A DNA stretch of 64,000 nt from Escherichia coli phage NG_A1. The stretch's first letter is position 1, and the number at the start of each line of letters is the position of its first letter. Positions 1 to 15,353 of the stretch are shown one piece after another. The position numbers and the translations under genes were made by a program. Location of the stretch: sequence record LC788705.1; one strand, 5' to 3'. The notes below the pieces were generated by a model. The model did no database searches, was not told the DNA's origin, and saw only the letters and a program-made list of their open reading frames with translations.

Positions 1-200
1 ATGAGAATGATTCTCATTTAAAAAGCGGAATGAGAATGATAATAATTCGCATTTAAGAATGGAAGTGAGAATTATTCAGGAAGTGAAACGATTCTCATTT
101 AAAAAGCAGAATGATTCTCATTTAGAAAGTGGAACGCAAATAATAGTGATTCGTATTTAAGAACGGAAGTGAGAAACACTATTATTTAAGTTATCCACAG
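1..200. repeat. Cluster of near-palindromic GAGAAT(G/C)ATTCTC units plus a ~55-bp imperfect tandem direct repeat (approx 26-85 and 140-200)
   Basis: Palindrome copies read at 3-15 and 108-120, half-sites at 32-40 and 89-97; two ~55-bp units align at ~80% identity. Confidence 0.7.
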
Positions 201-300
201 ACTTATTAACAGCACGATTTGACTTGACAGAATCCTAGCCATTTTGGGGTGTTATTAACAGACTTATCCACAGCTTATCCTACTGTATAAATATACAGTA
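181..300. repeat. Inverted-repeat arm A (~120 bp) carrying DnaA boxes
   Basis: Reverse complement of 4321-4440 aligns over ~120 bp with scattered mismatches; TTATCCACA at 191-199 and 264-272. Confidence 0.8.
191..272 (+). promoter_or_regulatory. Two consensus DnaA boxes (TTATCCACA) at 191-199 and 264-272
   Basis: Exact 9-mer matches to the E. coli DnaA box consensus TTATNCACA. Confidence 0.6.
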
Positions 301-483
301 TTCCTACGCAGTGAATAATTCTAATATAGCGTTAAAACGTCCTAGATCGCATTCTAACGCGTTTAATTTTGGTGGGGATACTAAAACACGGGCAAAATTG
401 GAGGAGGCTTGAAAATTAGTTAGCTCGCTAACGATCACACAAGGCGACACGTAACACCCTAATCATTAGCAGGCTAACCATCG

Positions 484-530
484 CGGGCGCGGTCAAATGA
501 GAATCATTCTCATTTGAGAATTGGGGGCAC
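484..530 (+). repeat. ~40-bp element CGGGCGCGGTCAAATGAGAATCATTCTCATTTGAG, copy 1
   Basis: Similar element recurs in direct orientation at 10506-10544; contains the GAGAATCATTCTC palindrome. Confidence 0.6.
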
Positions 531-666
531 TTCCCGATAGTTGCGCCCCGTGATTATTATAGTAGCGGGCAACCGTTACGCTTTGCCCACTCCCGCCACT
601 CATCTTGATGCCTAGACTTGCGACGGCGTACTAAAAACCGCTTGTACCAGTGATTAAACCATCGTT

Positions 667-870
667 TCATAAACCCTCCTCCGGTAGTCGATGCGTGATC
701 TTCTCCTCCTCCCCGTAGGAATCCACCAAATACTGATAATAACCATCGTGATCATAAATCACTTTATCATATTCGCCCCGCTCGACCGCTTGCCGATTCT
801 CCGGCGTATCTGGCACGTAAAAAACATCAACCATTGTACTGATTTTGGTTACAATAATTTTATTGCTCAT
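667..870 (-). CDS. Hypothetical pre-early protein (67 aa), last gene of the minus-strand operon
   Basis: ORF with GGAG Shine-Dalgarno (TAACGGAGCGTTATT-ATG). Confidence 0.55.
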   Translation of the reverse strand: MSNKIIVTKISTMVDVFYVPDTPENRQAVERGEYDKVIYDHDGYYQYLVDSYGEEEKITHRLPEEGL

Positions 871-885
871 AATAACGCTCCGTTA

Positions 886-993
886 TTAAAAATTACCATA
901 TATTCCCGGCCAAATTTTACTAGTAACATAAGTTACTATTCCTGCCGTAATTATGCTATAAACTACTAATAAGGTAAACATTAAACCAGACAT
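886..993 (-). CDS. Small hydrophobic peptide (35 aa, MSGLMFTLLVVYSIITAGIVTYVTSKIWPGIYGNF)
   Basis: Hand-translated; AGGAG RBS upstream; predicted single TM helix; below the ORF-track size cutoff. Confidence 0.4.
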   Translation of the reverse strand: MSGLMFTLLVVYSIITAGIVTYVTSKIWPGIYGNF

Positions 994-1001
994 AATAACT
1001 C

Positions 1002-1097
1002 CTAGTAAATATATTTTTGCCAATGGTGGCGAACGTTGTCGCCACCAGCGGAATCATTAGCTGCCTTAACATTACCAACGAAAATATATAATTTCAT
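1002..1097 (-). CDS. Small peptide (31 aa) containing an internal 8-bp-stem hairpin
   Basis: Hand-translated; GGGAG RBS upstream; short, speculative. Confidence 0.3.
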   Translation of the reverse strand: MKLYIFVGNVKAANDSAGGDNVRHHWQKYIY

Positions 1098-1115
1098 AAT
1101 AACTCCCGTTATTAA

Positions 1116-1274
1116 TTATTTGCGTAAATATACGCTTGCTAGTAGTCCGGCTAGAAAGCCCGCTGATACACCAAATGAAGCCACACCGGGAACACTAGCA
1201 CCATGAGCGTATAAAGCCCAGCAAATTACATAAGGCAACAACGGAAACATGCCAGCTATTAAAAACTTTTTCAT
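1116..1274 (-). CDS. Small hydrophobic membrane peptide (52 aa)
   Basis: Hand-translated; ATGA start/stop overlap with upstream gene; AAGGTGG RBS; two hydrophobic stretches. Confidence 0.45.
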   Translation of the reverse strand: MKKFLIAGMFPLLPYVICWALYAHGASVPGVASFGVSAGFLAGLLASVYLRK

Positions 1275-1615
1275 TGCGCCACCTTTCGAAATGCTGTTTC
1301 AATACTATCAGCCGTGGATTGAATATATGCGCCTTTCATTATCAGGCGCTCGGTGCATACCTTGCGGAAAATATTAATAAAATCCTCTTCATTTTCTGCA
1401 ATCAATGCTTCCCCCATGACCTGAATATCACAAGATGCAAAGGTCAAAAATTGAAACGCTAGTTCACGGGCAACGACCGCATTAATTTTATAATGCGCCT
1501 TGCCCTCATAAATATTAACCACGCCTTTATAAACTGGTGAAAGCTGATTTAAATAGCTTGCTAATAATGCCGGACGGCAATTAGCAACAAAACGATTGCC
1601 CTCATAAATTACCAT
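1271..1615 (-). CDS. Hypothetical pre-early protein (114 aa from ATG; track ORF begins at upstream TTG)
   Basis: ORF track 1271..1630; ATG at 1615 overlaps the stop of the upstream small ORF (ATGGTAA). Confidence 0.55.
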   Translation of the reverse strand: MVIYEGNRFVANCRPALLASYLNQLSPVYKGVVNIYEGKAHYKINAVVARELAFQFLTFASCDIQVMGEALIAENEEDFINIFRKVCTERLIMKGAYIQSTADSIETAFRKVAQ

Positions 1616-1734
1616 TGCGACATCCCCCAAATAGTTGCACCGATAAAGATTAGCTGGCTAACGATGATTAACATAAAACCAATTGAAGGCAGGACGCCCC
1701 AATATTGTAACGCCCTTTTAATTTGCTGAATCAT
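1609..1734 (-). CDS. Small hydrophobic peptide (41 aa)
   Basis: Hand-translated; ATGA overlap with stop of 1731..1943 and ATGGTAA overlap with next start. Confidence 0.4.
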   Translation of the reverse strand: MIQQIKRALQYWGVLPSIGFMLIIVSQLIFIGATIWGMSQW

Positions 1735-1943
1735 AATACCCCACGAAATGCAGCGTAAAAGGTGGCAAAATGTTTAACCGTTTCAGCGATCACGTTGCCG
1801 CGCTTGTCAAATTTCTTTTCAGTAACACGAAAGGCATTCTTATTACGTGCTACGTATTCGATTTTACAATCTTCACGCTCAAACGTGTTTACATCCACCA
1901 GCTTAAAGCCTTTCGAACGTGCAAGAGAAACGTTACGAATCAT
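1731..1943 (-). CDS. Hypothetical pre-early protein (70 aa)
   Basis: ORF track; translationally coupled to both neighbours. Confidence 0.5.
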   Translation of the reverse strand: MIRNVSLARSKGFKLVDVNTFEREDCKIEYVARNKNAFRVTEKKFDKRGNVIAETVKHFATFYAAFRGVL

Positions 1944-1945
1944 TT

Positions 1946-2095
1946 TTATTCTCCTTTACCAGTCATGCAGCCTAGCAGATAAGAAAATGCGGCAATTACC
2001 GCGCCAATAGTAACCGCGTGAACACCGAAAGCTATTGCAAACAAAGATAAAATAGCGCCCAAGATACCAGCTAAAATAGCTCGAAAAATAACCAT
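1946..2095 (-). CDS. Small two-helix hydrophobic membrane peptide (49 aa)
   Basis: Hand-translated MVIFRAILAGILGAILSLFAIAFGVHAVTIGAVIAAFSYLLGCMTGKGE; GGGGAG RBS. Confidence 0.45.
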   Translation of the reverse strand: MVIFRAILAGILGAILSLFAIAFGVHAVTIGAVIAAFSYLLGCMTGKGE

Positions 2096-2144
2096 TTGTA
2101 ATACTCCCCTAGTTAGTGGGGCGAAAGTAACGCCCCGTTATTAA

Positions 2145-2375
2145 TTACATTAAAACAATTTTTGCCGCTTGTTTTTTGGTACAGTGTTCCGCTTTCAGCG
2201 TGTCCAGCAAAAAGCCAGCCGTTTGCTGATCGATTTTATCGGCGTTGTATAGTTCTTGAATGGTGTTATAAGTTTTAGCAATGCCGAACTCCTGTACCAT
2301 TTCATGAATGATGACGCGATTAGATACCCAGCCTTGCGCGGTAAACAGATGACTAGCAGAAGAATACGCAACCAT
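2145..2375 (-). CDS. Hypothetical pre-early protein (77 aa from the RBS-supported ATG)
   Basis: ORF track 2145..2408; GGAGG RBS precedes internal ATG at 2375. Confidence 0.5.
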   Translation of the reverse strand: MVAYSSASHLFTAQGWVSNRVIIHEMVQEFGIAKTYNTIQELYNADKIDQQTAGFLLDTLKAEHCTKKQAAKIVLM

Positions 2376-2480
2376 TTTAAGCCTCCAAATTTTTGGGAAA
2401 ATTTTCAACCGTCCTTAAACGGTGTAAAGGCATTATAACAAAAAGGCCACCATAAAAGGCGACCTTTACAAAACTTTACA

Positions 2481-2975
2481 TTAGACTACTTGTAGGGATT
2501 CAATATTGAAACATCGTTTCAATTCGTCATGCAAAACAGCGTATTCCTCCCATCGGGTACTATCAGGAATATAAACAAGCTGTTTTAATCGGTTTGCATA
2601 TATTACCGCTTTGTTATCGACTATCTCGACGCCGCCATATTTAATAATTAATTTCATGACGGAATTAATAGGATCGCCGCCGTTTACATATGTGCCGGAT
2701 TTACTTAACTGATAATGATAAAGGCTTGCGTATACGTTTTCATTTTCATACCATTCGCCAGTATCCTCGTCTTCATAGCCATCGCTACCAAAACGAGAAG
2801 CATTATCAATAGCCATTTCATGAGCGAAAGCGTCCAGATCCGTACCAGCAGGAACAAAGTATTCCTCGGTATTCCCTTCTCCGCAATAGCCAGTATGGCA
2901 ATCGACTAAAATGATCATATCATGTTTAGCCGTGCTCACTTCCCCTAGCGAGAAGCCGTATTTTTCCTCAGCCAT
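2481..2975 (-). CDS. Hypothetical pre-early protein (164 aa), acidic, Cys/His motif CHTGYCGEG
   Basis: ORF track; no domain recognised. Confidence 0.55.
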   Translation of the reverse strand: MAEEKYGFSLGEVSTAKHDMIILVDCHTGYCGEGNTEEYFVPAGTDLDAFAHEMAIDNASRFGSDGYEDEDTGEWYENENVYASLYHYQLSKSGTYVNGGDPINSVMKLIIKYGGVEIVDNKAVIYANRLKQLVYIPDSTRWEEYAVLHDELKRCFNIESLQVV

Positions 2976-3040
2976 TAGTTAGCCTCCTATTAATTAACAA
3001 GGGAATAGTAAAGCGGGGTAACAATCCCCGCTTAATATTA

Positions 3041-4058
3041 TTACTCGCTTTCGGTGTTAGTGGTAAAAGTAGAAATATCGATACCTTTTACCATTTCATC
3101 AATCATTTCAGCGATGTTAAAACTTTGCACCATTTCCAGCATTGCCGCTTCCATAGCCGCCCCTGCTACCGCTTTCGCCTTTTGGTTATTTGGGGCGTAT
3201 TGGTCAACCGCTACACTCAGCAGGTTAGCAATCACTACTCGACCAATAGGCGTATCGATATAACCTTTGATCATGAATGGTGCTTTTTTAGCCGCTACTT
3301 TCGTAATTTGAGTTAATGCAATTTTACCCGCCTCCAGTTTTGCAGCATTTACAACAGCGGATTTATTGGCGGCAACAATGTTAGCAATCTTGGTCATGGT
3401 GTTTTTTCCTTTGTTTTCAGTAGTTTGAGTGTTAACGCTTTGAGTGTTAGAATTTACAGCATGGTTTTCTACGCTGTCAATAATCTGATCTTCATCTTTC
3501 CAGAAAGAAAAACCAGCGCTTTCTATATCCCCATCATAAATATATGGGTATAGCTCCCGTGGTAACAAAAAATTACCGTCGTCATCAAAAGCCATTATAC
3601 CAGTATATTGAGATCCGTCGTTATCCGGCTTATGCCATCCAGCTGGTAAATACTTCCAGATAACATCTAAAAATCCCTCAATACTAGAAAGTCCGTTTAT
3701 CAGATCAAGCCCAATAAGCTCAAAACCATTTATATTAAATGATTGACGGCCTGAATTGCTATGATACGCAACAATATTATTACCCTGCGCAATAATAAAA
3801 TCGGTATCCGGCCCCGCTCCCCTGCCTGTAAAGATATGGCAATCCCGATTATATATATAAAACTAGCGTTGCCCCTTGCTTATATAATGGTAGAAAACTA
3901 TCCATATCATAGGCGTCATAATCATCAAAAAAGTTTTGATGAATAGTTTCAGCCTTGTTAATAAAATGTTTAATGCTGGTTGACTTGCTACCGTCCAGCA
4001 GGTTGCGCAATGCACCTTTTAAAACGGTGGCATTATCAGGTTTATACAGCCTCATTTG
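3041..4058 (-). CDS. Hypothetical pre-early protein, apparently interrupted by a +1 frameshift near 3849-3865 (fused product ~340 aa)
   Basis: Track ORFs 3849..4199 and 3041..3595 are joined by an 89-codon stop-free, start-less stretch (3596-3862) in the frame of the downstream ORF; strong GAGGGAGG RBS before ATG at 4058. Confidence 0.4.
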
Positions 4059-4320
4059 TTCGGCCTCCCTCGTTAATCGGTGAGTGAATGATATAGATAT
4101 TTGTTCACTAGGGGCAAGAAAAAAGAAAATGTTTTTTATTCCTTGCCTAGCGCCTAGTTTTATGCTAACCGCGCAGCGGTACAGTAAAGAGCAAAACACG
4201 GTGAAGCCACCAGGGCGACTGGTGAAGGCTTTACTTTAATATTACCCCACCGCATTTAGCTCGTTAGAAAGCGTTTTAGGCCGCTTAAAATTAATTGCAG
4301 TCGTTAACACTACCTTTCTA

Positions 4321-4440
4321 CCCTGTATATTTATACAGTAGGATAACATGTGGATAAGTCTGTGGATAAGTCCTTATATCGCCGCCTATCGTGTCAAGTT
4401 AATTTACAAAATGTATAAGGCTGTGGATAACTTAAATGAT
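4321..4440. repeat. Inverted-repeat arm B (~120 bp) carrying DnaA boxes
   Basis: Reverse complement matches 181-300; TGTGGATAA at 4349-4357, 4361-4369 and 4422-4430. Confidence 0.8.
4349..4430 (-). promoter_or_regulatory. Three consensus DnaA boxes on the complementary strand (4349-4357, 4361-4369, 4422-4430)
   Basis: Exact reverse-complement matches to TTATCCACA. Confidence 0.6.
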
Positions 4441-4620
4441 AGTGGTTCTCACTAACTAATTTATGCAGTTATTGTATAACAAAATATAGTTAGTTGGCTA
4501 ATAGGATTTTAAAGTGATTATGAGTCTGCTAATTAAACCTGAAAAACTCATTAGGTAGTCTGCTAATGATTTTGATATAATATAATAGAGATTAAATTAA
4601 TAACATAAGGAAACAATTAG

Positions 4621-5139
4621 ATGCCTAAATATAAAGATATAGATTATGACCTTTTTAATAGTTACTTTTATTATGATGAAACAGCGTTATCATTTTTACG
4701 TTGGCGGGAGGATCACGCCGTCGCAGGTGGTTTAAATGGTAATTATTGGCAAGTTGAACTATTAGACATGGGACAATTCAAAGTACATAGAATTATCTTT
4801 TGTATAATGAATGGCGGTATAGATAGCGAGCTAATGATTGATCATATTGATCGTAACACACGTAACAATAACATCTGGAATCTTCGCGCGGTTGATAGTT
4901 CGCAGAATAATTATAATCGTACTCCTAGTGAGTATGAAAACTGTAAGCGTGCTAATGGTATCCCTAGAAACATTTACGTTAATAAAGTTCGCCCCCGTGA
5001 TAGTTTCGGGCGTGATTATTTAACTGCTCAAATTAAGAATCCTATTACTAACAAGCGTGTTAGTAAGTCTGGTTATGATTTACAAGAGTTATTATTATGG
5101 CTTGAAGCTAAAAAAGCTGAATTTGGAATTGTCAATTAA
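4621..5139 (+). CDS. HNH homing endonuclease (HNH_3-type)
   Basis: Motif IDHIDRNTRNNNIWNLR; AT-rich flanks; extended -10 TGATATAAT upstream. Confidence 0.7.
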   Translation: MPKYKDIDYDLFNSYFYYDETALSFLRWREDHAVAGGLNGNYWQVELLDMGQFKVHRIIFCIMNGGIDSELMIDHIDRNTRNNNIWNLRAVDSSQNNYNRTPSEYENCKRANGIPRNIYVNKVRPRDSFGRDYLTAQIKNPITNKRVSKSGYDLQELLLWLEAKKAEFGIVN

Positions 5140-5637
5140 TTAATTTTATAAAATAACTCGTTTAGTCTTGATTTTTAAAAGTCAATATCTTTTACAACTA
5201 TTTTTCAATTTTGCTTTTGTTAAATATTTGTTAAATCGAAAATAAGCCGCCTAAAACGCCCTAGAACGCGATGAAGTTTTTAGCCATGCCATTGCATTGC
5301 CTGCCCTCGTTTATCGCTGCCACGAGCTTTTTAGATTTTGTCAAGTAGGGCAAAGCAAATATAAATGAAAAATTACTTGCCTATCTGCTTTATTTTGTGG
5401 TATTCGCGCGCCCGTTTCTTTTAATTTTAGGCCGTCGCCGCACGGTGTCCGGTGAGTTTTACCTTTACGTTTCTTTACAAAAATAAGGTTGCGCCGTTTT
5501 TAGTATTTGCTATTATTTATCTCGTAGGACGGCAACGGACTACAACGGCGGGAAGTTTACCGCCGCGCTCTTTAAAAATTGGGTACATCTTAAAGCCTAT
5601 CGGCGGTAAACTTATTACATTATAAGGAATCGACGAT

Positions 5638-5841
5638 ATGAAACAAACGCTTTTGATCACTGGCAAGCCTATTAAGGCACTAGATAGCAAAACAAAAAAC
5701 TTGTTGACAGTAGCACAAAGATCAGTAAAATATAGATTCACGCAGTACAAGAAAGGTCGCCAGCAAGGTCTGGAAATGATCTGGCGAAATATTATGATTG
5801 ACCTAAAAGAAAATCATAAAAAATTGCAAAAAATTGTTTGA
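5638..5841 (+). CDS. Small basic protein (67 aa) flanked by a 24-bp inverted repeat
   Basis: ORF track; Lys/Arg-rich; inverted repeat at 5581-5604 and 5859-5882. Confidence 0.4.
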   Translation: MKQTLLITGKPIKALDSKTKNLLTVAQRSVKYRFTQYKKGRQQGLEMIWRNIMIDLKENHKKLQKIV

Positions 5842-6071
5842 CAACCTAGCCGATAGGTTTTAAGATGTACCCAGTTCGATAAGAGCGATAACTTGATAAA
5901 ATTTGACGGTCGGTGCTTACCATAATGCATCCCGCCCCCTAACGGGATATAGCGGCCTACGTGGAGTTCTTTAAAATTGATTATATTGGCGAGCGGATTG
6001 TTACTTATTACCTGCTGTTACTTTCTAGCAGGTAATGCGGAACAATCCCCAAATAACTAGGAGTTTATATT

Positions 6072-6323
6072 ATGCAAAACGTTATTACCGCGCCGAAAGT
6101 TGGTCAATCCGTCTTCATTCCTTTCGTTACTAAAACGGATGAATTAACCGGAAAGGCCGAACGTATTAAAGGTGCGGCGCTTATGCCGTTCGATACAATC
6201 GACGCGGTATACGCTGAAAATGAACGTAGTAACAACGGCAAGCCCGTTTTTAGCGTTCGCGTTAAATCCGGCGATGTTGTAAAGGTTGTTCAACGCAACG
6301 AAAAATGGGAAGCTGTATTGTAA
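6072..6323 (+). CDS. Hypothetical pre-early protein (83 aa)
   Basis: ORF with AGGAG RBS; followed by a stem-loop at 6337-6362. Confidence 0.55.
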   Translation: MQNVITAPKVGQSVFIPFVTKTDELTGKAERIKGAALMPFDTIDAVYAENERSNNGKPVFSVRVKSGDVVKVVQRNEKWEAVL

Positions 6324-6419
6324 ATTAGTGTTAACTTTATATCCCCTTATTTCAGGGGGATATAACGATTAACATTAAGTTAATCTAATCCCTTAAATTA
6401 AACTAATAGGAGTTACATC

Positions 6420-6827
6420 ATGACTAACGCTAAAACCGCAAAATTCGCATGGAATGAAGAAAACACTCAGAAAGCTGTTTCCATGTATCAACAGTTAATT
6501 AATGAAAACGGTTTAGATTTCGCAAATAGCGACGGCCTGAAAGAGATTGCAAAAGCAGTAGGCGCGGCCTCCCCCGTATCCGTTCGCTCAAAATTGACCA
6601 GTGCAAAAGCCTATCAAAAAAGCGATAAGCCGCGTAAAGTTGGCGGCGGTAGCTCTGTGCGTAAAGCTCACTATGTGCGCGTTATCGCTAAACATGCTAT
6701 TGATTCCGGCATTATCAAAGACGCCGATGATTTGGCAAGCCTTGAAAGTGCAAAACTTGAAACGCTGGACGCAGTAGCGCAATTGTTAGGCGTTGCCGAT
6801 GAAGTAAAACAGGCCGCAGGCGAATAA
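6420..6827 (+). CDS. A2: Putative pre-early DNA-binding protein, A2-like (135 aa)
   Basis: Size and position immediately upstream of the A1-like gene; basic C-terminal half; AGGAG RBS; name assigned from memory of T5. Confidence 0.45.
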   Translation: MTNAKTAKFAWNEENTQKAVSMYQQLINENGLDFANSDGLKEIAKAVGAASPVSVRSKLTSAKAYQKSDKPRKVGGGSSVRKAHYVRVIAKHAIDSGIIKDADDLASLESAKLETLDAVAQLLGVADEVKQAAGE

Positions 6828-6917
6828 TAGTTATATCTTGCCCCCTTTTAGTGAGGGGGCAATAATATAACTGTTTAGCGATAGTTATTTTCTTCCCTTA
6901 AATCAGGAGTTTTAAAA

Positions 6918-7115
6918 ATGGTTTTCTCCCCTACTGAATCTTTAATTCTAGGCTTATTTATTATGGCGGCCTCCCTATTATTCGCTTATTTTCAAAATGA
7001 TTTAGATTCGTATTATTTTAAACGTAAATCTAAATTAGCAAAACGTTTAGGTCTGCTTTGTTTTATCGCTGCCGTTGCTTGTGGTGTTAGTTCTAGCCTA
7101 GTGCCTTTAAATTAA
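6918..7115 (+). CDS. Small membrane protein (65 aa, two predicted TM helices)
   Basis: ORF with CAGGAG RBS; hydrophobic stretches LILGLFIMAASLLFAYF and LLCFIAAVACGVSSSLV. Confidence 0.5.
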   Translation: MVFSPTESLILGLFIMAASLLFAYFQNDLDSYYFKRKSKLAKRLGLLCFIAAVACGVSSSLVPLN

Positions 7116-7205
7116 TATTGCAAATTATAACGCCTATTGTTCGAGGCGTTATATTTGGCAATATTGCCGTTACTAACCTAATCCCTTTAATGGAGTTTTA
7201 TTACT

Positions 7206-8876
7206 ATGATTATTTCCGCAGAAAAACAAACCGTTATCCTGAAAATGGCCGCTGACTTTAACTTCTACGGTAAACGCCTGCGCGCCACTAAATTGGAAGT
7301 TTGTGACGATATTTCGAAAGCGGTATACGATACTACTAAACACTCCACCGCCATTTGTGATTGGTTGGAAGCAAATAAACCAGCGAAACCAAAAGCGGCA
7401 AAAGTAGCAAAAGCCATTAAAAACGATGAGCGCCCAGAAGCGGCGGGAATTGTTTCTAGTACGGTTGAGCAATGGGAAGTAAAACAGGGTAAACGCTTTA
7501 TTATTACGTCGATTCAAAATAATACTTTCCCGCATAAAAACTTTTTAGCCTCACTGGAGCAATTTGCTAAATATATCGGTGCTGATTTGCTTGTTTCTAA
7601 GTATATTTATAATAAAAACGGTTTTCAAAATGGGGAAGGTGCGGATGGAATCAAATATGATTCCGCGTTCGATAAATATATTTGCAGCAAAAACGTGTTT
7701 TTAAATAACCGCCGCTTTGCTTTCATGGCTGAAATTAATGTTTTGCCAACCGCAGATTATCCGCTTTCTGGATTCGCCGAGACTGCAACGGCTTTAAATA
7801 TTGAGGGGCTGGCAATTGGTCACGCTAAAATTACCGCTGAAAGCGTGCCAGCTTTAAAAGGTGAAGTAGTGCGCCGTATGTACTCAACCGGAACGGCAAC
7901 GCTCAAAAACTACATTCAGCAGAAAGCAGGACAAAAAGCGGAAGCACTGCATAACTTCGGTGCGCTTATTGTTGAGTTCGACGACGACGGGGAATTTTTT
8001 GTTCGCCAGCTTGAAACAATGGACGAAAGCGGGGTGTTTTATGATCTGAACGTTTGCGCTACTCCTGCCGGATGCTATGAAACAACGGGGCATGTTTTAG
8101 GCTTGCAATATGGCGATATCCACGCCGAGAAATTAGATGAGGAGTGCGCCGCCGCATCTTGGGGGCATGGTGATACTTATGGGCTTGTGGATATTCTTAA
8201 ACCAAAATATCAGTTTGTACATGACGTGCATGATTTTACATCGCGCAACCATCACAACCGCGCATCGGGTGTATTCCTAGCGAAACAGTATGCAGCCGGA
8301 CGTGATAAAGTTCTGGATGATCTTATCGATACGGGGCGCGTACTGGAATCAATGGAGCGCGATTTTAGTCAAACAATCATTGTTGAATCGAATCACGATT
8401 TGGCGCTATCCCGTTGGCTTGATGATCGTAATGCTAACATCAAAGACGATCCAGCAAACGCCGAGTTATATCACCGCCTGAATGCTGCAATTTACGCGGC
8501 AATCGGTGAACACGACGAAACGTTTAACGTGCTAGATTATGCGTTGCGCAAGGTTGCAGGTTGTGAATTTAACGCCATTTTCCTAACGACTGACCAATCT
8601 TTCAAGATTGCAGGTATTGAATGCGGCGTACACGGTCACAATGGCATTAACGGGAGCCGTGGCAATCCGAAACAGTTTAAGAAATTGGGCAAATTAAACA
8701 CGGGGCACACCCATACCGCCAGCATTTACGGCGGCGTTTATACCGCTGGCGTGTCTGGTAGTCTGGACATGGGTTACAACGTTGGCGCGTCAAGCTGGAC
8801 GCAAACGCATGTTATTACCTATGCAAACGGTCAGCGCACTTTGATCGACTTTAAAAACGGTAAATTCTTTGCGTAA
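7206..8876 (+). CDS. A1: Pre-early protein A1, metallophosphoesterase-like (556 aa)
   Basis: Phosphoesterase-like motifs GDIH, GHGDTYG, ESNHD, GVHGHNG; 556 aa matches T5 A1 size as I recall. Confidence 0.75.
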   Translation: MIISAEKQTVILKMAADFNFYGKRLRATKLEVCDDISKAVYDTTKHSTAICDWLEANKPAKPKAAKVAKAIKNDERPEAAGIVSSTVEQWEVKQGKRFIITSIQNNTFPHKNFLASLEQFAKYIGADLLVSKYIYNKNGFQNGEGADGIKYDSAFDKYICSKNVFLNNRRFAFMAEINVLPTADYPLSGFAETATALNIEGLAIGHAKITAESVPALKGEVVRRMYSTGTATLKNYIQQKAGQKAEALHNFGALIVEFDDDGEFFVRQLETMDESGVFYDLNVCATPAGCYETTGHVLGLQYGDIHAEKLDEECAAASWGHGDTYGLVDILKPKYQFVHDVHDFTSRNHHNRASGVFLAKQYAAGRDKVLDDLIDTGRVLESMERDFSQTIIVESNHDLALSRWLDDRNANIKDDPANAELYHRLNAAIYAAIGEHDETFNVLDYALRKVAGCEFNAIFLTTDQSFKIAGIECGVHGHNGINGSRGNPKQFKKLGKLNTGHTHTASIYGGVYTAGVSGSLDMGYNVGASSWTQTHVITYANGQRTLIDFKNGKFFA

Positions 8877-8931
8877 ATAAATTATTTCCCCTAGCGGCTT
8901 GAAATATAGCCGCTATTACAGGAGTCAAAAA

Positions 8932-9189
8932 ATGAAAGTTACATTACCCAAAACATTGGACGAAAAAGTATTCATTTCACCGGATGAAATGGAATCTGAT
9001 AAAGTTTACAGCTTCGGGCCTATCCTAGCCGCCAAAACTAATACGGATGGTATTATTTCCGTCGATTCCCGTGATAACGATATTGTCCCTTTTGATGATG
9101 ATGGCGCTTTTTATGAGTGGCTAAGCGATAATAATTTACCCGTAAACGGTGAATTAACGCCGTACCAGATGCAGATTATTATCAAATAA
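8932..9189 (+). CDS. Hypothetical pre-early protein (85 aa from the RBS-supported ATG)
   Basis: ORF track 8899..9189; AGGAG RBS precedes ATG at 8932. Confidence 0.5.
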   Translation: MKVTLPKTLDEKVFISPDEMESDKVYSFGPILAAKTNTDGIISVDSRDNDIVPFDDDGAFYEWLSDNNLPVNGELTPYQMQIIIK

Positions 9190-9227
9190 ATTAAATCCAT
9201 TATTAAACTAATTGGGGTTTTATAAAT

Positions 9228-9626
9228 ATGAAAAAGCAAAATATTCCATTCGATCGCGCTCAATCTTCTATTGTTCTGGTTTATTCTAATGGCGAACGTT
9301 ACCACGTCGAGGCGGGGCACGTTATTGATGAATTACTAGACTTTAATGACGCTTTGCAGGTTACTACCTTTGCCTATACGCAAGCCCGCGCAAGTAGCTA
9401 CATTAAGGCCGTAGGCGTTTATGTTGACACGGTGAAGCAAGAAACGATTATCATCGACGCAGTAAAATCCGGTCTAGCCTTTGCAGTTGTCGCGCCTTGC
9501 CCCGCTTGCCTCGATGATCAATTGATCAGCGCAAAGGTATATACCTGCGCGGGTATCCGTTCCCATGTATCAGGTGAGGATGTTAGTTTTATCGCTGATG
9601 CGTTGGCTTTTGGTCTGGCGTTCTAA
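9228..9626 (+). CDS. Hypothetical pre-early protein (132 aa)
   Basis: ORF track; followed by a stem-loop at 9640-9668. Confidence 0.5.
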   Translation: MKKQNIPFDRAQSSIVLVYSNGERYHVEAGHVIDELLDFNDALQVTTFAYTQARASSYIKAVGVYVDTVKQETIIIDAVKSGLAFAVVAPCPACLDDQLISAKVYTCAGIRSHVSGEDVSFIADALAFGLAF

Positions 9627-9705
9627 TAGTTAATTTATTATTACCCGCTATTTATAAGCGGGTAATGCTGAATAAACTAAATCCCTTAAATGGAGAACGT
9701 AACAA

Positions 9706-10440
9706 ATGAATAAAGCTATTATTAATTCTTTCCGTAATTTCCCGCATATTTCCCGCGTCATGATTTGGGATTTAGACGGCACTATCATTAATTCTTTCCA
9801 TCGCGTAGCGCCTTGCTTTGATAGCGAGGGCAATTTAGATTTAAATAAGTATAAAAATGAAGCCTGCAAACATCATTTAATAATGCAAGATTCCTTATTG
9901 CCATTGGTTGAATATATGCGCCAGTGCATGAATGACGCAAATACTTTAAACATTATTTGCACCGCTCGACTGATGAGCAAGTCGGACTATTATTATTTGC
10001 GTAAACAAGGGTTGCGCGGTCGTGGCGATAGCAATATCCGCGTGTTTTCTCGCGATACACTGCATAAATATTTTAAAGCTGATAAAGTTAGCGAGATATA
10101 CCACAGCAAAGACGCAGTATATAAATCTTATTACTTTGAATTATTTAAACAATTATATCCGAACGCTGATTTTACAATGATTGATGATCATAAAGGCGTG
10201 CTATCAGCGGCGGCATCATACGGATTTAAAACGCTGGATGCGCAAGCCGTTAATGATATTCTATCAATAGGTGTAACATTAATAGGTGAAACCTTTATTG
10301 ATGAATCGCTCGACGATGATAATGATTATCAATTCCTAGCTGACCGTTTAAAATTATGCTGGGAAGGTATGACCGAGGAAGAACGCGCAGAATATAGTTG
10401 CAGCCCGCAACAATATATTGAGAAATTAAAAGTTGCCTAA
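9706..10440 (+). CDS. dmp: HAD-superfamily phosphatase, T5 dmp-like 5'-deoxyribonucleotidase (244 aa)
   Basis: HAD motif I IWDLDGTII near the N-terminus; TGGAG RBS; position matches the T5 pre-early set. Confidence 0.65.
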   Translation: MNKAIINSFRNFPHISRVMIWDLDGTIINSFHRVAPCFDSEGNLDLNKYKNEACKHHLIMQDSLLPLVEYMRQCMNDANTLNIICTARLMSKSDYYYLRKQGLRGRGDSNIRVFSRDTLHKYFKADKVSEIYHSKDAVYKSYYFELFKQLYPNADFTMIDDHKGVLSAAASYGFKTLDAQAVNDILSIGVTLIGETFIDESLDDDNDYQFLADRLKLCWEGMTEEERAEYSCSPQQYIEKLKVA

Positions 10441-10505
10441 CAATTAAAGTTGAAATAGTCACGGTGTGTAATGATAACATGCCGTGACTATTAGCTTGCT
10501 AAGTA

Positions 10506-10544
10506 CCGGGCGGTAATGAGACTCATTCTCATCTGGAGGGCCAC
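10506..10544 (+). repeat. ~40-bp element CCGGGCGGTAATGAGACTCATTCTCATCTGGAG, copy 2
   Basis: Direct repeat of the element at 484-530, ~10.0 kb downstream, just after the dmp-like gene. Confidence 0.6.
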
Positions 10545-10591
10545 TGGACACACCTCCATGTGTAATCTTATGAAATTTGGCAAAAAGTCAA

Positions 10592-10837
10592 TTAGCGCAT
10601 AGAAGGGTCATCAAAACGATGTTCAGGTTTAAACTCACGAAATCTCTTCCGCGACGCCCGAGATCCATCCGACCATTCTCGCTCAAACTCCGCACGTTTC
10701 TCGTCAAACTTCCGCTCCCTTTCCGCAATCTCCCGCGTCACTCCCGCAATATATTTACGATGCTTGTTGATTGCCGCAGTTGTCCCGAAAACCCCCGCGA
10801 GTATCCCGATAATAAAAGCAATTACAATACTAAACAT
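10592..10837 (-). CDS. Small membrane-anchored protein (81 aa) with charged C-terminal domain
   Basis: N-terminal TM helix FSIVIAFIIGILAGVFGTTAAI followed by an Arg/Glu-rich tail. Confidence 0.5.
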   Translation of the reverse strand: MFSIVIAFIIGILAGVFGTTAAINKHRKYIAGVTREIAERERKFDEKRAEFEREWSDGSRASRKRFREFKPEHRFDDPSMR

Positions 10838-11024
10838 CTAATTCCCTCTCAATTTGCAGAATACGGGTACTATCACAACGTTGCAGTAGTGCTAGCTTTT
10901 CTAGAGTAACTTGTTGTTGTTTTACCTGAGCTTCTAGAGTTTTTAGGCGAACGTACACGGTGTAAGAAATAATGAAAACTGCCCAGACTAGTATTACTGT
11001 TAGTGTAGCTACTACCTCCATCAT
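10830..11024 (-). CDS. Small membrane-anchored coiled-coil protein (64 aa)
   Basis: N-terminal TM helix, then heptad-like LKTLEAQVKQQQVTLEKLALL. Confidence 0.5.
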   Translation of the reverse strand: MMEVVATLTVILVWAVFIISYTVYVRLKTLEAQVKQQQVTLEKLALLQRCDSTRILQIERELDV

Positions 11025-11128
11025 TTACATTTCTCCGATAGTAAGGTTTCGATTCTAGCTAAGTGATTATCTAAGATACATTGCCCCATAATCACAATCC
11101 CTAGTAATGCAATAATTACCCATTCCAT
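11021..11128 (-). CDS. Small membrane peptide (35 aa)
   Basis: Hand-translated MEWVIIALLGIVIMGQCILDNHLARIETLLSEKCK; TAATG and ATGA overlaps with neighbours. Confidence 0.35.
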   Translation of the reverse strand: MEWVIIALLGIVIMGQCILDNHLARIETLLSEKCK

Positions 11129-11256
11129 TAAATCCATCCCGCCATAGCTGCTAACCAAAAACCTACGAAAATAAAGAATAGGATAGTTCCGAATCCAAAG
11201 CTATTAATCCAGCTATCGTACACTTCTCCACGTCTGCTCTTTCTTTTGTTTGACAT
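11128..11256 (-). CDS. Small membrane peptide (42 aa)
   Basis: Hand-translated MSNKRKSRRGEVYDSWINSFGFGTILFFIFVGFWLAAMAGWI; AGGAG RBS. Confidence 0.4.
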   Translation of the reverse strand: MSNKRKSRRGEVYDSWINSFGFGTILFFIFVGFWLAAMAGWI

Positions 11257-11434
11257 ATCTTTCGTGCTCCTATAAATATGGTATTTTAAAATATTTTATA
11301 ATTTGTGTAATAACCAACCATGCTTGTGACTTCCTAGAAGGACTTCTACTTTTCTTACATAGTGGTTTCTGCCAATATACCATCCAAAAAATAAAAAATT
11401 TAGTTTACTTGGATGTCTTTTTGCTTTATACTAA

Positions 11435-11701
11435 TTACAGGTAGTTAGATTGCTCTAGTTTAAATTTACAATCACCGTATTTAAGATCAAACTGACTGAG
11501 ATCCCACCACCCAAACTTAGTACGGAGCTGTACTACTGGGAAGCGATCTCCCTTAATACGAACTTTTTGAATCTTGAGGCCGTAATGTTCTTCTCCCGCA
11601 CCGCCAAAAGATTTTACAAATCCAGTACAAAATGGTTTGGGAGCAGGTGCACAACCAGATAACATAACTGCGGCAACTAGTGCAATCACAAACTTTTTCA
11701 T
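11435..11701 (-). CDS. llp: Lipoprotein Llp-like, candidate receptor-blocking superinfection-exclusion protein (88 aa)
   Basis: Signal peptide with lipobox LSGC; divergent from and adjacent to the receptor-binding protein gene; own TTGCTT-N17-TATAAT promoter. Confidence 0.7.
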   Translation of the reverse strand: MKKFVIALVAAVMLSGCAPAPKPFCTGFVKSFGGAGEEHYGLKIQKVRIKGDRFPVVQLRTKFGWWDLSQFDLKYGDCKFKLEQSNYL

Positions 11702-11732
11702 ATTTATCTCTCCATTTCTAATTTATGAATCT

Positions 11733-11761
11733 ATTATAGCAAAATAGAGGGATGAAAGCAA
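11733..11761 (-). promoter_or_regulatory. Sigma70-type early promoter for llp (TTGCTT-N17-TATAAT)
   Basis: -35 at 11756-11761 and -10 at 11733-11738 on the minus strand, 17-bp spacer. Confidence 0.65.
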
Positions 11762-11786
11762 ATACATTTTTATAATAGGAGATTAT

Positions 11787-13544
11787 ATGGGTTTTTTCGC
11801 TGGAAAATATAGCGATGGTAAGACCGTACTATCCTTAAATACTGAATCTGGTGGTGACATTAATCGTCACTATAGTCCAAATAATAATAGTATTTTTCAT
11901 AGTGATATGCCATTTGTTCTAGTTGATGGTACTTATGAGGTAGGATTAGGTGATGCCGGGAATGGGTTTTTCGTATGTCAGATGCCTCCTGATATAGTAA
12001 ATATTAAATCTAATGATCCTGGTAGAGTTATACTAACTGCTATTGAAATTAACGGCACTCACAGAGCTTTTCTTAATGGTACTCAGAGTAAAGTTGGTCA
12101 AACTATAGTTGCCACTCAAGCAGATCCCTTTAGATCTTTTGCTAGTGTTTCTCAAACCAGTGGATTTGCCTTTGGTAATAGTCTAGCATCCGGCACTTAT
12201 AATTATAATCCCTCTCTAGGGCACGAAGAATCTATCTCTAGGAGTGGTACAGGGGGTACTACGTTACATAGTACCTACCATGGGATAGTTAGGCCCGGTG
12301 CGGGAGCTCCTGTAGGTATTACTGTTGCAGAAGCTTTTGCACAATTAGGTTTTCCTATTAATAGTAGCACAGTACCTATAGATGGCAATAACCCGTACTA
12401 TTGGGATCCTGGATGGATATCACCTCTAGGAGCAGCGCATAGAGGGCATGATTGGTTTTATGTCTGCAATTCTAATATACGTGGATATGGTGGGGTTAGG
12501 CAAGGGCTCCCAGGTAATGTAAATACTATGTACCACGACGGTGGGAACAGATTTGTTTGTAGGGGATCTACTACTAATCTGGCCAACCAGTCTGGCAATC
12601 CTACGGTAATACAGGACTGGTATAATATAACTCCTACTAAGGTTATTTGGTATGTTCTTAATTTAAGGTACTCTAATAGTGGAATGAGTATTTCAGGCAA
12701 CCCCTTTACTGGTTCTGATATTCTTATATCTCCTTCTAATTTCATAATTAAAGGGGTAAGTCTCCCTAATACCGGGTATAAATTTATAAATCAGAATGCT
12801 TTTGGTAACCTAGGTTACCGTCCTGATATGGAGTATATAGGAAATAACGCAGCGTATACCGGGGTTTTTGGGGATACCACGGCAAGGTGTGAACTTGTAG
12901 GGTCTAGTAATGGAGGAGTATGGTCTCCTGTAGACTATGGTGGAGCTAAATCCCAAATTAGCATTTACAAATTCGGAGCTGGTAAGCAATGGTATGTAAA
13001 CTCTAGGGATAATACTATCGGTAATGAACACGGGGTTGTTTGGGGACCATCAGCAGTTCCATTACGACTTTTTGGTGGAAATGTAGGTAGTTCTTATATG
13101 GGAGATGATATTACTCCCAGCTACCCAGGAACGGGTGATAGATACGTTGGTTTATCAACTATTGGGCTAGGTATACCGGGTGGCAATGCTACAGTAATTC
13201 TTACCACTGAAGTTATATCAGGTAACCTTAACTGTGCAGGTGTTCCTGCTAATACATGGAATAACGGTGTGTTTCAAGTGCAAGGAAGAAGAGCATATAG
13301 CTATAGCGGCGGGGATGCAATATTCCACCAGATTTTAACGCTACCTGTGGGCTATCTAGTACCTTTTCATACTACATCTGCTTTTAGATATACACCTAAC
13401 AATGCTCTAAGTAGAAACAGTTTTATATACACTGTTAAAAATTTAGGAAATGGAAATGTAGAGTTAGGAGTAGTTATGCACGTGAGTTTGGGTAGTGCAG
13501 TTTTCCTACCTAGATTAAGAGTAACAGTTCAACGCCTTACCTAA
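11787..13544 (+). CDS. Receptor-binding tail protein, pb5/Oad-like (585 aa)
   Basis: N-terminus [41 protein letters not shown] resembles the T5 pb5 N-terminus as I recall it; divergent pairing with llp; Gly/Asn/Ser-rich. Confidence 0.6.
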
Positions 13545-13554
13545 AGGAGGAAAT

Positions 13555-14037
13555 ATGGCAAATGATGTATTAGTACCAGATCTTATGTCCCCTGAAGGGA
13601 TGGATGTGATTGAAGCTTATTTACAGTGTGGCAGCGATGCGCCTGCCGCAGCACGTAGTCTTGGAATGTCTGAAATTGCTTTCCGAGATATTATGAATCG
13701 TAGTGAAGTTAAGAACTACTTAAATGATATTTTTATGGAGAGTGGATTCCGTAATAGGGATCGTTTGTTTGGTGTTCTAGATGAAGTTATTAAACGTAAA
13801 CTAGAGGAGCTAGAAGAAACCGGCATGGGTTCTGACCAAGATATTATGGATATTCTATGGAAAGCTCACAAAATGAAGATGGAAGAAATGAAAATGATGG
13901 TGGAGTTAGAGAAAGCTAAAGCCGCCGCTCGAGCTCCTGCTAATCAGACCAATATTCAGAATAACATTATTGCTGGAGCTGGGGACCAAAACTACATGGA
14001 CTTAATTACTTCCCTAGCTACTGGAGGTAAGAAGTAA
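13555..14037 (+). CDS. Terminase small subunit (160 aa)
   Basis: N-terminal HTH-like segment [17 protein letters not shown]; directly upstream of the large terminase with abutting stop/start. Confidence 0.55.
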
Positions 14038-15353
14038 TGGAAGTGTCAAGACCCTATGTTAACACAGTAGATGTTATTGATTTCGGTATAGATAAACGTT
14101 TCTTTCGTCTACCTGTTTCTGGAATACTGGCGCAAGAAGGTATTACACCTAATGGTCCTCAAATAGCAATTATCAATGCGCTAGAAGATCCTAGACATCG
14201 TTTTGTAACGGCATGTGTATCGCGCCGTGTAGGTAAATCCTTCATCGCATACACACTTGGGTTCCTAAAATTGCTGGAACCTAATGTGAAAGTGTTAGTA
14301 GTTGCTCCTAACTACTCACTGGCCAACATCGGATGGTCTCAGATTCGTGGCCTTATTAAAAAGTACGGCCTACAGACCGAACGTGAGAACGCTAAAGATA
14401 AAGAGATTGAGTTAGCTAATGGTTCTCTATTTAAACTAGCTTCCGCGGCTCAGGCTGACTCCGCAGTTGGACGTTCATATGATTTTATCATCTTTGATGA
14501 GGCGGCAATTTCCGATGTGGGTGGTGATGCCTTCAGGGTTCAGCTGCGTCCTACCCTAGATAAACCTAATTCTAAGGCTCTATTTATTTCCACCCCTCGT
14601 GGAGGTAACTGGTTTAAAGAGTTTTACGCCTACGGATTTGATGATACGTTGCCTAACTGGGTATCTATTCATGGTACATATCGTGATAACCCACGTGCCG
14701 ACTTGAATGATATTGAGGAAGCACGTCGTACAGTTAGTAAAAACTACTTCCGCCAAGAATACGAGGCTGACTTCTCTGTATTCGAAGGACAGATATTTGA
14801 TACCTTTAATGCTATCGATCATGTTAAAGATCTCAAAGGTATGCGTCACTTCTTTAAAGATGATGAAGCATTCGAAACGTTGCTTGGTATTGACGTTGGT
14901 TATCGTGACCCTACAGCAGTTCTTACTATTAAATATCACTACGATACGGATACTTACTATGTGTTAGAAGAGTACCAGCAGGCGGAAAAAACTACAGCCC
15001 AGCATGCTGCTTATATTCAGCATTGTATAGATCGTTATAAAGTTGATCGTATTTTTGTTGACTCTGCCGCCGCTCAGTTCCGCCAGGACTTAGCTTATGA
15101 GCATGAAATTGCATCGGCTCCAGCTAAAAAATCTGTCCTAGATGGCCTAGCATGTCTGCAGGCATTATTCCAACAGGGTAAAATTATTGTAGATGCCTCA
15201 TGTTCCTCCTTAATTCATGCATTGCAGAACTATAAGTGGGACTTCCAAGAAGGTGAAGAGAAATTATCACGTGAAAAACCACGTCATGATGCTAACTCTC
15301 ACCTTTGTGATGCGCTCCGCTATGGAATTTACTCTATTTCCCGTGGTAAATAA
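14037..15353 (+). CDS. Terminase large subunit (438 aa)
   Basis: Walker A-like SRRVGKS, Walker B FIIFDEAA, C-terminal nuclease-type acidic motifs; GGAGG RBS. Confidence 0.85.
   Translation: MEVSRPYVNTVDVIDFGIDKRFFRLPVSGILAQEGITPNGPQIAIINALEDPRHRFVTACVSRRVGKSFIAYTLGFLKLLEPNVKVLVVAPNYSLANIGWSQIRGLIKKYGLQTERENAKDKEIELANGSLFKLASAAQADSAVGRSYDFIIFDEAAISDVGGDAFRVQLRPTLDKPNSKALFISTPRGGNWFKEFYAYGFDDTLPNWVSIHGTYRDNPRADLNDIEEARRTVSKNYFRQEYEADFSVFEGQIFDTFNAIDHVKDLKGMRHFFKDDEAFETLLGIDVGYRDPTAVLTIKYHYDTDTYYVLEEYQQAEKTTAQHAAYIQHCIDRYKVDRIFVDSAAAQFRQDLAYEHEIASAPAKKSVLDGLACLQALFQQGKIIVDASCSSLIHALQNYKWDFQEGEEKLSREKPRHDANSHLCDALRYGIYSISRGK

Follow-up and report, generated by a model that had tools for sequence, protein, structure and literature searches.

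A BF23-type host-recognition and receptor-blocking module, probably specific for BtuB, in the T5-like Escherichia coli phage NG_A1

The closest described counterpart of the locus analyzed here is the hrs-llp pair of phage BF23 (GenBank DQ097178; Mondigler et al., 2006, cited in PMC4728585 and PMC10644984). In this phage, the gene of the receptor-binding protein (RBP, called Hrs) and the gene of the lipoprotein Llp diverge from each other, flanked by the terminase genes on one side and the terminal repeat on the other. BF23 belongs to the phages with BtuB as their receptor, and its Llp blocks BtuB (PMC4728585). In T5, the corresponding genes are oad, which encodes pb5, and llp. The receptor in this case is FhuA, and the system is represented by structures of FhuA-pb5 (8A8C/8B14) and FhuA-Llp (8A60); a further PDB entry for T5-type Llp is 7QJF. 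T5 Llp carries Cys1 and a disulphide between Cys11 and Cys58, and its AlphaFold model has been reported to be inaccurate (bioRxiv 10.1101/2022.06.28.497910). A further relative is Cor of T1-like and lambdoid phages (NF047972), likewise a small lipoprotein encoded next to the RBP locus; classic Cor blocks FhuA. In the older literature, BF23 Llp was regarded as having no homology to T5 Llp. Among the Markadamsvirinae as a whole, RBPs form three clusters, from which the receptor (BtuB, FepA or FhuA) can be predicted (Maffei et al.; PMC8594841).

Here, we analyzed a stretch of 64,000 nucleotides from Escherichia coli phage NG_A1 (LC788705.1), hereafter the window. Both genes of interest are annotated merely as "hypothetical protein" in the GenBank record of this phage. 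Comparison of their sequences with those of characterized relatives indicates that they belong together as a module for host recognition and lytic conversion in a T5-like phage (Tequintavirus); the module would be of the BF23 type and specific for BtuB. We assign this reading a probability of roughly 0.9.

The list of open reading frames and the raw sequence agree that llp and the RBP gene diverge from a common control region of exactly 85 bp (11702–11786). The initial annotation had proposed this divergent arrangement, together with an llp promoter in the shared spacer and a lipobox LSGC in the small protein, and all three are borne out by the data given below and by the coordinates of the two genes. 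Directly 3' of the RBP gene follow the genes for the small (13555–14037, plus strand) and large (14037–15353, plus strand) terminase subunits, which places the RBP gene at its canonical position. The same order, in which the RBP gene adjoins terS/terL on one side and diverges from the gene of a small lipoprotein on the other, is found in BF23, T5, SPC35, DT571/2 and phiR2-01. Beyond llp, the flank contains four small membrane-protein ORFs and then dmp (deoxynucleotide monophosphatase), a marker of the terminal repeat in T5-like phages. The first 25 kb of the window share 90–94% identity with many Tequintavirus genomes, and over this length the overall identity does not exceed about 94% for any genome in the phage collection that was compared. 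The 2.1-kb module itself occurs at a coverage of at least 80% in 116 phage records, among which chee24 and its siblings rank highest (97.1% identity). A closely similar module (95.5% DNA identity) is present in SIA3lw.

The control region is strongly conserved, with 96.5–100% DNA identity to BF23 (96.5%), SPC35, chee24, SPLA5b, IrisVonRoten and DT571/2. In BF23, its length is likewise 85 bp. On the minus strand, it contains a predicted sigma-70 promoter for llp (11733–11761). The −35 hexamer TTGCTT (11761–11756) is separated by 17 nt from the −10 hexamer (11738–11733), which together with a TG at 11741–11740 forms the extended −10 element TGcTATAAT. About 19 nt after the −10 hexamer and 6 nt before the ATG lies the conserved Shine-Dalgarno sequence GGAGAG (11708–11713, minus strand). 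The BF23 entry (DQ097178) marks identical hexamers as −35 and −10 of llp. Moreover, when eight phages are aligned, TTGCTT and TGnTATAnT do not vary, even in the Epseptimavirus phiR2-01 with its otherwise diverged spacer. A generic promoter scan did not list the llp promoter, because the −35 hexamer matches the consensus at only three of six positions, and the sites that it did find were no more numerous than in shuffled sequence. Our assignment is therefore based on the BF23 annotation and on conservation. The extended −10 element plausibly compensates for the weak −35 hexamer. Given the literature on T5 and BF23 and the conservation of the promoter, llp would be expressed early.

On the opposite strand, a TATAAT at 11771–11776 was considered as a promoter of the RBP gene and rejected, because the implied start site would fall within or past the Shine-Dalgarno sequence of this gene (AGGAG, 11777–11781, plus strand, 5 nt before the ATG). 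A plus-strand TATTAT at 11732–11737 overlaps the −10 hexamer of llp and is a possible candidate for a back-to-back late promoter. At the other end of llp, the scan for intrinsic terminators returned none 3' of the gene, and the predicted RNA fold of 11300–11445 (minus strand) is not more stable than those of shuffled sequences (z = −0.51).

The llp gene (11435–11701, minus strand) encodes the 88-aa precursor of a putative receptor-blocking (superinfection-exclusion) outer-membrane lipoprotein. The ORF begins MKKFVIALVAAVMLSGC and starts with a signal peptide (residues 1–16), followed by the lipidation site at Cys17 (codon 11653–11651), the last residue of the lipobox L-S-G-C; the region up to and including this residue spans 11651–11701 on the minus strand. 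The Pfam model LPAM_1 matches residues 1–18 with 23.9 bits (cutoff 20). The mature protein would have 72 aa with three cysteines, namely Cys1, which is predicted to be lipidated, Cys9 and Cys62. The corresponding precursor residues Cys17, Cys25 and Cys78 are invariant in 12 homologs. Residue +2 is an alanine and thus not an aspartate. According to the +2 rule of Lol sorting, an alanine at this position directs a lipoprotein to the outer membrane, and the same destination is hence expected for Llp.

Over its whole length, Llp matches PHROG 1119 (E = 1.7e-26) and is almost identical to lipoproteins of BtuB-dependent phages. It shares 87 of 88 residues with BF23 Llp (98.9%) and 97.7% with Llp of DT571/2, and the exact sequence is found in SPC35, among others. 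Residues A11 and I44 mark it as the SPC35/BF23 variant, in contrast to the variants found in chee24 or SPLA5b. The DT571/2 protein is in turn identical to Llp of DT57C, and cloned DT57C Llp excluded the T5-like isolates of the same group (the DT57C series; PMC4728585).

The relationship to T5 Llp (77 aa) is more distant. BLASTP aligns the two proteins with 30% identity over 67 aa (E = 2e-4), largely in the signal peptide, and hhalign aligns 28 N-terminal columns only. A phmmer search of Llp against the PDB gave chance matches only and did not find 8a60. A Foldseek search of the Llp model against the PDB returned nothing at E ≤ 0.001, and T5 Llp was absent from its hits. Llp has a best fold hit in common with T5 Llp and T1-like Cor; its structural resemblance to T5 Llp is weak. 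Nevertheless, Llp of the window, T5 Llp and the T1-like "Cor" of phage grams each match PHROG 1119 from end to end, and the layout of three cysteines is common to them. Pairwise, Cor of the Hanrivervirus phage grams is 35% identical to Llp (E = 1.7e-12). Considering the weak BLASTP and hhalign alignments and the negative Foldseek search next to the common PHROG, it is likely, by analogy, that Llp works like T5 Llp, and a shared fold is suggested.

With respect to Cor, Llp scores below the curated cutoff of the NCBIfam equivalog model NF047972 (16.1 vs. 31 bits), and the match is confined to residues 1–34, i.e., the signal peptide region. Records in RefSeq and from pharokka label the gene "Cor superinfection exclusion protein", which is to be read as the name of a broad family and not as a statement of function. 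One might go further and consider all small lipoproteins that block TonB-dependent transporters as one ancient family, which closes its receptors allosterically and independently of the epitope, such that the RBP body can be swapped freely without re-tuning Llp. We regard this generalization as tentative and somewhat less probable than its negation. If it were true, the module would form a handy set, provided by nature, for testing the "jamming" model with BtuB.

The idea that Llp acts independently of the RBP epitope draws on the mosaic structure of the module. In a sliding comparison of DNA identity, llp, the spacer and terS are 92–100% identical to BF23, SPC35 and DT571/2, whereas the body of the RBP gene falls to 68–72% for the same phages and reaches 94–97% for chee24, SPLA5b and IrisVonRoten. 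For SPC35, identity is 99%, 90% and 89% through 11760–12059 and only 58% in the segment that follows. This drop points to a recombination breakpoint in the 5' part of the RBP gene, near position 12060, and on this sequence evidence the RBP gene body appears as a swapped cassette between conserved flanks. As llp is conserved while the RBP body differs, one Llp evidently serves several RBP alleles. The same Llp protein occurs beside at least three of them (585, 586 and 595 aa), which are 44–60% identical in the presumed BtuB-contact region. One Llp with different RBP alleles, in DT57C as compared with BF23, has already been described (Golomidova et al.; PMC4728585).

Taken together with what is known from T5 and BF23, the following course of events may be envisaged. 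The 585-aa RBP would sit at the tip of the central tail fiber and bind the vitamin B12 transporter BtuB irreversibly, which would lead to DNA ejection. By analogy with T5 and BF23, llp would be transcribed early from its own sigma-70 promoter with the extended −10 element. The product, once exported, would receive its lipid at Cys17 and reach the inner leaflet of the outer membrane, where it would inactivate BtuB as a phage receptor. Superinfection would thereby be blocked, and the loss of progeny to cell debris would be avoided. As the FhuA-Llp crystal structure suggests by analogy, Llp would most likely bind the periplasmic face and the plug of BtuB and close the extracellular loops allosterically by folding them inwards.

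Such a jamming of BtuB from the periplasm is deduced from the T5 system, and Llp might instead block BtuB by another route: After flipping to the cell surface, it could occlude the RBP site directly, or it could lower BtuB levels. In favor of such routes, surface exposure has been proposed for other superinfection-exclusion lipoproteins, and T5 Llp was once assigned to the outside of the cell in an in vitro study. In addition, our literature searches turned up no BtuB-Llp structure, and the structural match between Llp and T5 Llp is a weak one. We nevertheless consider these routes unlikely. The PHROG family, the cysteine layout and the best fold match are common to Llp and T5 Llp, which is periplasmic. 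Moreover, one Llp serves RBP alleles that are 67–74% identical overall and 44–60% identical in the presumed contact region. This observation is easier to reconcile with an allosteric, epitope-independent block that closes the receptor in general than with competition for a single epitope.

The partner of Llp is encoded at 11787–13544 on the plus strand. This protein of 585 aa is a homolog of pb5/Oad/Hrs and represents a BtuB-clade allele. Its full length is covered by a match to PHROG 4815, "receptor binding tail protein" (E = 1.6e-272, residues 1–585 on profile positions 1–650), while no family was found for it in Pfam or NCBIfam. The solved pb5 chains 8b14_B and 8a8c_B match at E = 7e-51 (phmmer) in two stretches, residues 1–117 and 273–532. 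The exact sequence has been deposited under BEU75639.1 (Escherichia coli phage NG_A1, "hypothetical protein"), and tblastn finds an RBP of at least 90% identity in 104 records.

The segment between the two pb5-like stretches, residues ~118–272 (12138–12602, plus strand), has no detectable similarity to pb5 and is the most divergent part among BtuB-type RBPs. Compared with BF23, the central region is 44–60% identical (44–57% at residues 91–270). In pb5, the loop tips Gln115 and Phe170 touch the FhuA plug (bioRxiv 10.1101/2022.06.28.497910). The missing pb5 counterpart, the high variability among BtuB-type RBPs and the pb5 loops that enter FhuA together suggest that residues ~118–272 are likely the region that contacts BtuB.

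Several lines of evidence bear on the receptor. The initial annotation had noted that the RBP is about 55 residues shorter than T5 pb5, had connected size with receptor type and had suspected a receptor other than FhuA. The difference in length is confirmed (585 vs. 640 aa). Size does set the BtuB type apart (585–595 aa, BF23 Hrs having 595 aa), but it does not separate the FhuA type (640 aa) from the FepA type, of which the S124 RBP has ~637 aa in a near-complete sequence whose gene wraps the record origin. Hence, the argument from length is roughly valid and only a heuristic. Comparison with pb5 and its relatives is more telling. A high identity to T5 pb5 over the full length, which would speak for FhuA, was not found; BLASTP gives 29.7%. 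This value, the affiliation of the RBP with the BtuB clade and the near identity of Llp with BF23 Llp uphold the suspicion that FhuA is not the receptor.

The affiliation itself is clear from a comparison with related RBPs, mostly of known receptor, in which the BtuB-specific clade comprises BF23, SPC35, DT57C, EPS7, phiR2-01, SPLA5b and the BASEL phages Bas26–34. Identity is 55–98% to the RBPs of BtuB-dependent phages and 28–31% to those of T5, S131, S124 and Gostya9, so that the protein clearly falls into the BtuB cluster by sequence. The closest of the named relatives is chee24 (98.5%). It is followed by SPLA5b (97.3%, 16 differing positions), which forms no plaques on btuB-deleted S. Typhimurium and for which btuB is a susceptibility gene in a TraDIS screen (PMC10949491). 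For IrisVonRoten (96.6%, 20 differing positions), the supplementary table of the BASEL collection gives BtuB as the terminal receptor. At lower identity follow DT571/2 (73.7%), SPC35 (71.1%), TrudiRoth (68.6%), BF23 Hrs (66.8%) and phiR2-01 (55.5%). All of these depend on BtuB: DT57C and DT571/2 select btuB mutants, and such mutants are resistant (PMC4728585); the btuB dependence of TrudiRoth has been complemented (PMC8594841); and BF23, SPC35, EPS7 and phiR2-01 are known BtuB phages (PMC8624392; PMC10644984). As in BtuB-specific phages, the RBP gene adjoins a BF23-type llp. Gene identities, lipobox, promoter and BtuB-clade membership can thus be read from the sequence, and BtuB dependence and Llp-mediated exclusion have been established by others on near-identical proteins.

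Within the BtuB clade, the substitutions of this particular allele might shift or widen the specificity, either toward particular BtuB variants or toward a second transporter. Among BtuB-clade RBPs, the central region varies strongly (44–60% to BF23), and the sensitivity to phiR2-01 follows variants of the BtuB loop EL-7. Furthermore, S. Typhimurium is infected by SPLA5b but reportedly not by SIA3lw, whose module has 95.5% DNA identity to the present one (PMC12752171). However, only few and mostly conservative substitutions (I/V, I/T, N/A) separate the RBP from those of chee24, SPLA5b and IrisVonRoten, and differences in host range among T5-like phages are usually ascribed to the lateral tail fibers and the O-antigen and not to the RBP (PMC4728585). 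We therefore consider an altered specificity quite improbable.

The remaining receptors can be dismissed with near certainty. A T5-like module, in which the RBP binds and Llp blocks FhuA, would agree with the true homology to pb5 and the common gene order, but it is hardly compatible with the low identity to pb5, the lack of similarity at residues 118–272, where the FhuA-contacting loops of pb5 lie, and an Llp that resembles T5 Llp mostly in the signal peptide and is 99% identical to the BtuB-blocking protein of BF23. A FepA-specific module like that of H8 or S124 was raised by the initial annotation and such modules exist among T5-like phages (PMC8594841), but the RBP is just 27.8% identical to that of the FepA-type phage S124, whose "receptor blocking protein" is unrelated to Llp (7% identity, PHROG 16810, no lipobox), making this reading equally remote.

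A BtuB-specific module of the BF23 type thus accounts best for the locus, and such a module is already known. In BF23, it differs mainly in the RBP, which is another allele of 595 instead of 585 aa. The 585-aa allele is shared with chee24, SPLA5b, IrisVonRoten (Bas32), AKFV33, phiLLS and ~100 other Tequintavirus phages at 94–98.5% protein identity. Compared with modules of the chee24/SPLA5b/IrisVonRoten type, the 2.1 kb are 94–97% identical in DNA and the RBP differs by 9–20 scattered substitutions only. The module hence adds no biology to what was described by Mondigler (2006), Golomidova (2016), Maffei (2021) and van den Berg (2022). Mildly new are the evidence that groups Cor in one family with the Llp proteins of T5 and of the BF23 type, and the position of the RBP cassette's breakpoint within the gene.

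The value of the analysis lies in the annotation of the two genes and in the prediction of the receptor, as the label "Cor" in many records wrongly hints at FhuA. The use of BtuB would guide the composition of phage cocktails that avoid resistance through a shared receptor. Cross-exclusion would likewise be expected with BtuB-dependent phages, among them BF23 and SPC35, and with E colicins.

The gene for the receptor-binding tail-tip protein (RBP, 585 aa, BtuB clade; 11787..13544, plus strand) shares only 68-72% sliding DNA identity with the BtuB-dependent phages BF23, SPC35 and DT571/2 over its body (window 11760-13560), while its flanks share 92-100% with the same phages. By its behaviour in these alignments, the RBP gene body resembles a swapped cassette. 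Against SPC35, identity drops from about 90% to 58% near 12060 in the same sliding comparison, which suggests a recombination breakpoint within the RBP gene near this position.

The divergent llp gene (11435..11701, minus strand) encodes the BF23-type receptor-blocking lipoprotein Llp. A Cor-like lipoprotein encoded by grams, a T1-like phage, matches PHROG 1119 over its full length, as do T5 Llp and BF23-type Llp, and all three have a common layout of Cys1, Cys9-11 and Cys57-62 in mature-protein numbering. The grams protein is 35% identical to the window Llp (E 1.7e-12) and thereby nearer to it than T5 Llp. The lipoproteins compared are encoded at window 11435-11701 and at loci L013 (3930-4163) and L011 (4001-4228). 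In the spacer between the two genes, a plus-strand TATTAT overlaps the llp -10 hexamer (TATAAT, minus strand) at window 11730-11740. Judged by sequence, these could be candidate back-to-back overlapping -10 elements, the plus-strand one serving the RBP gene.

Database labels of both genes vary. The identical RBP of phage NG_A1 (BEU75639.1) is annotated 'hypothetical protein', and one of the accessions with an Llp identical to that of the window is BEU75638.1. The annotation of phage 8sent1748 wrongly names the RBP 'superinfection exclusion protein'; in phiLLS the labels on this gene pair are 'super-infection exclusion protein' and 'receptor-blocking protein', and an RBP label is absent.

Between llp and the terminal repeat, four small minus-strand ORFs (window 10592-11256) encode single-pass membrane proteins and are counterparts of T5.159-162 and BF23 Orf1-4. 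In SPC35 the segment corresponding to window 10860-11059 is missing (0-22% sliding DNA identity). The 5'-deoxynucleotidase gene dmp lies at 9706..10440, and dmp is also found within the repeats of BF23 and T5. Window 1-10560, which includes dmp, has the appearance of the genome's terminal-repeat side, and the host-recognition module therefore lies just inside the repeat boundary.
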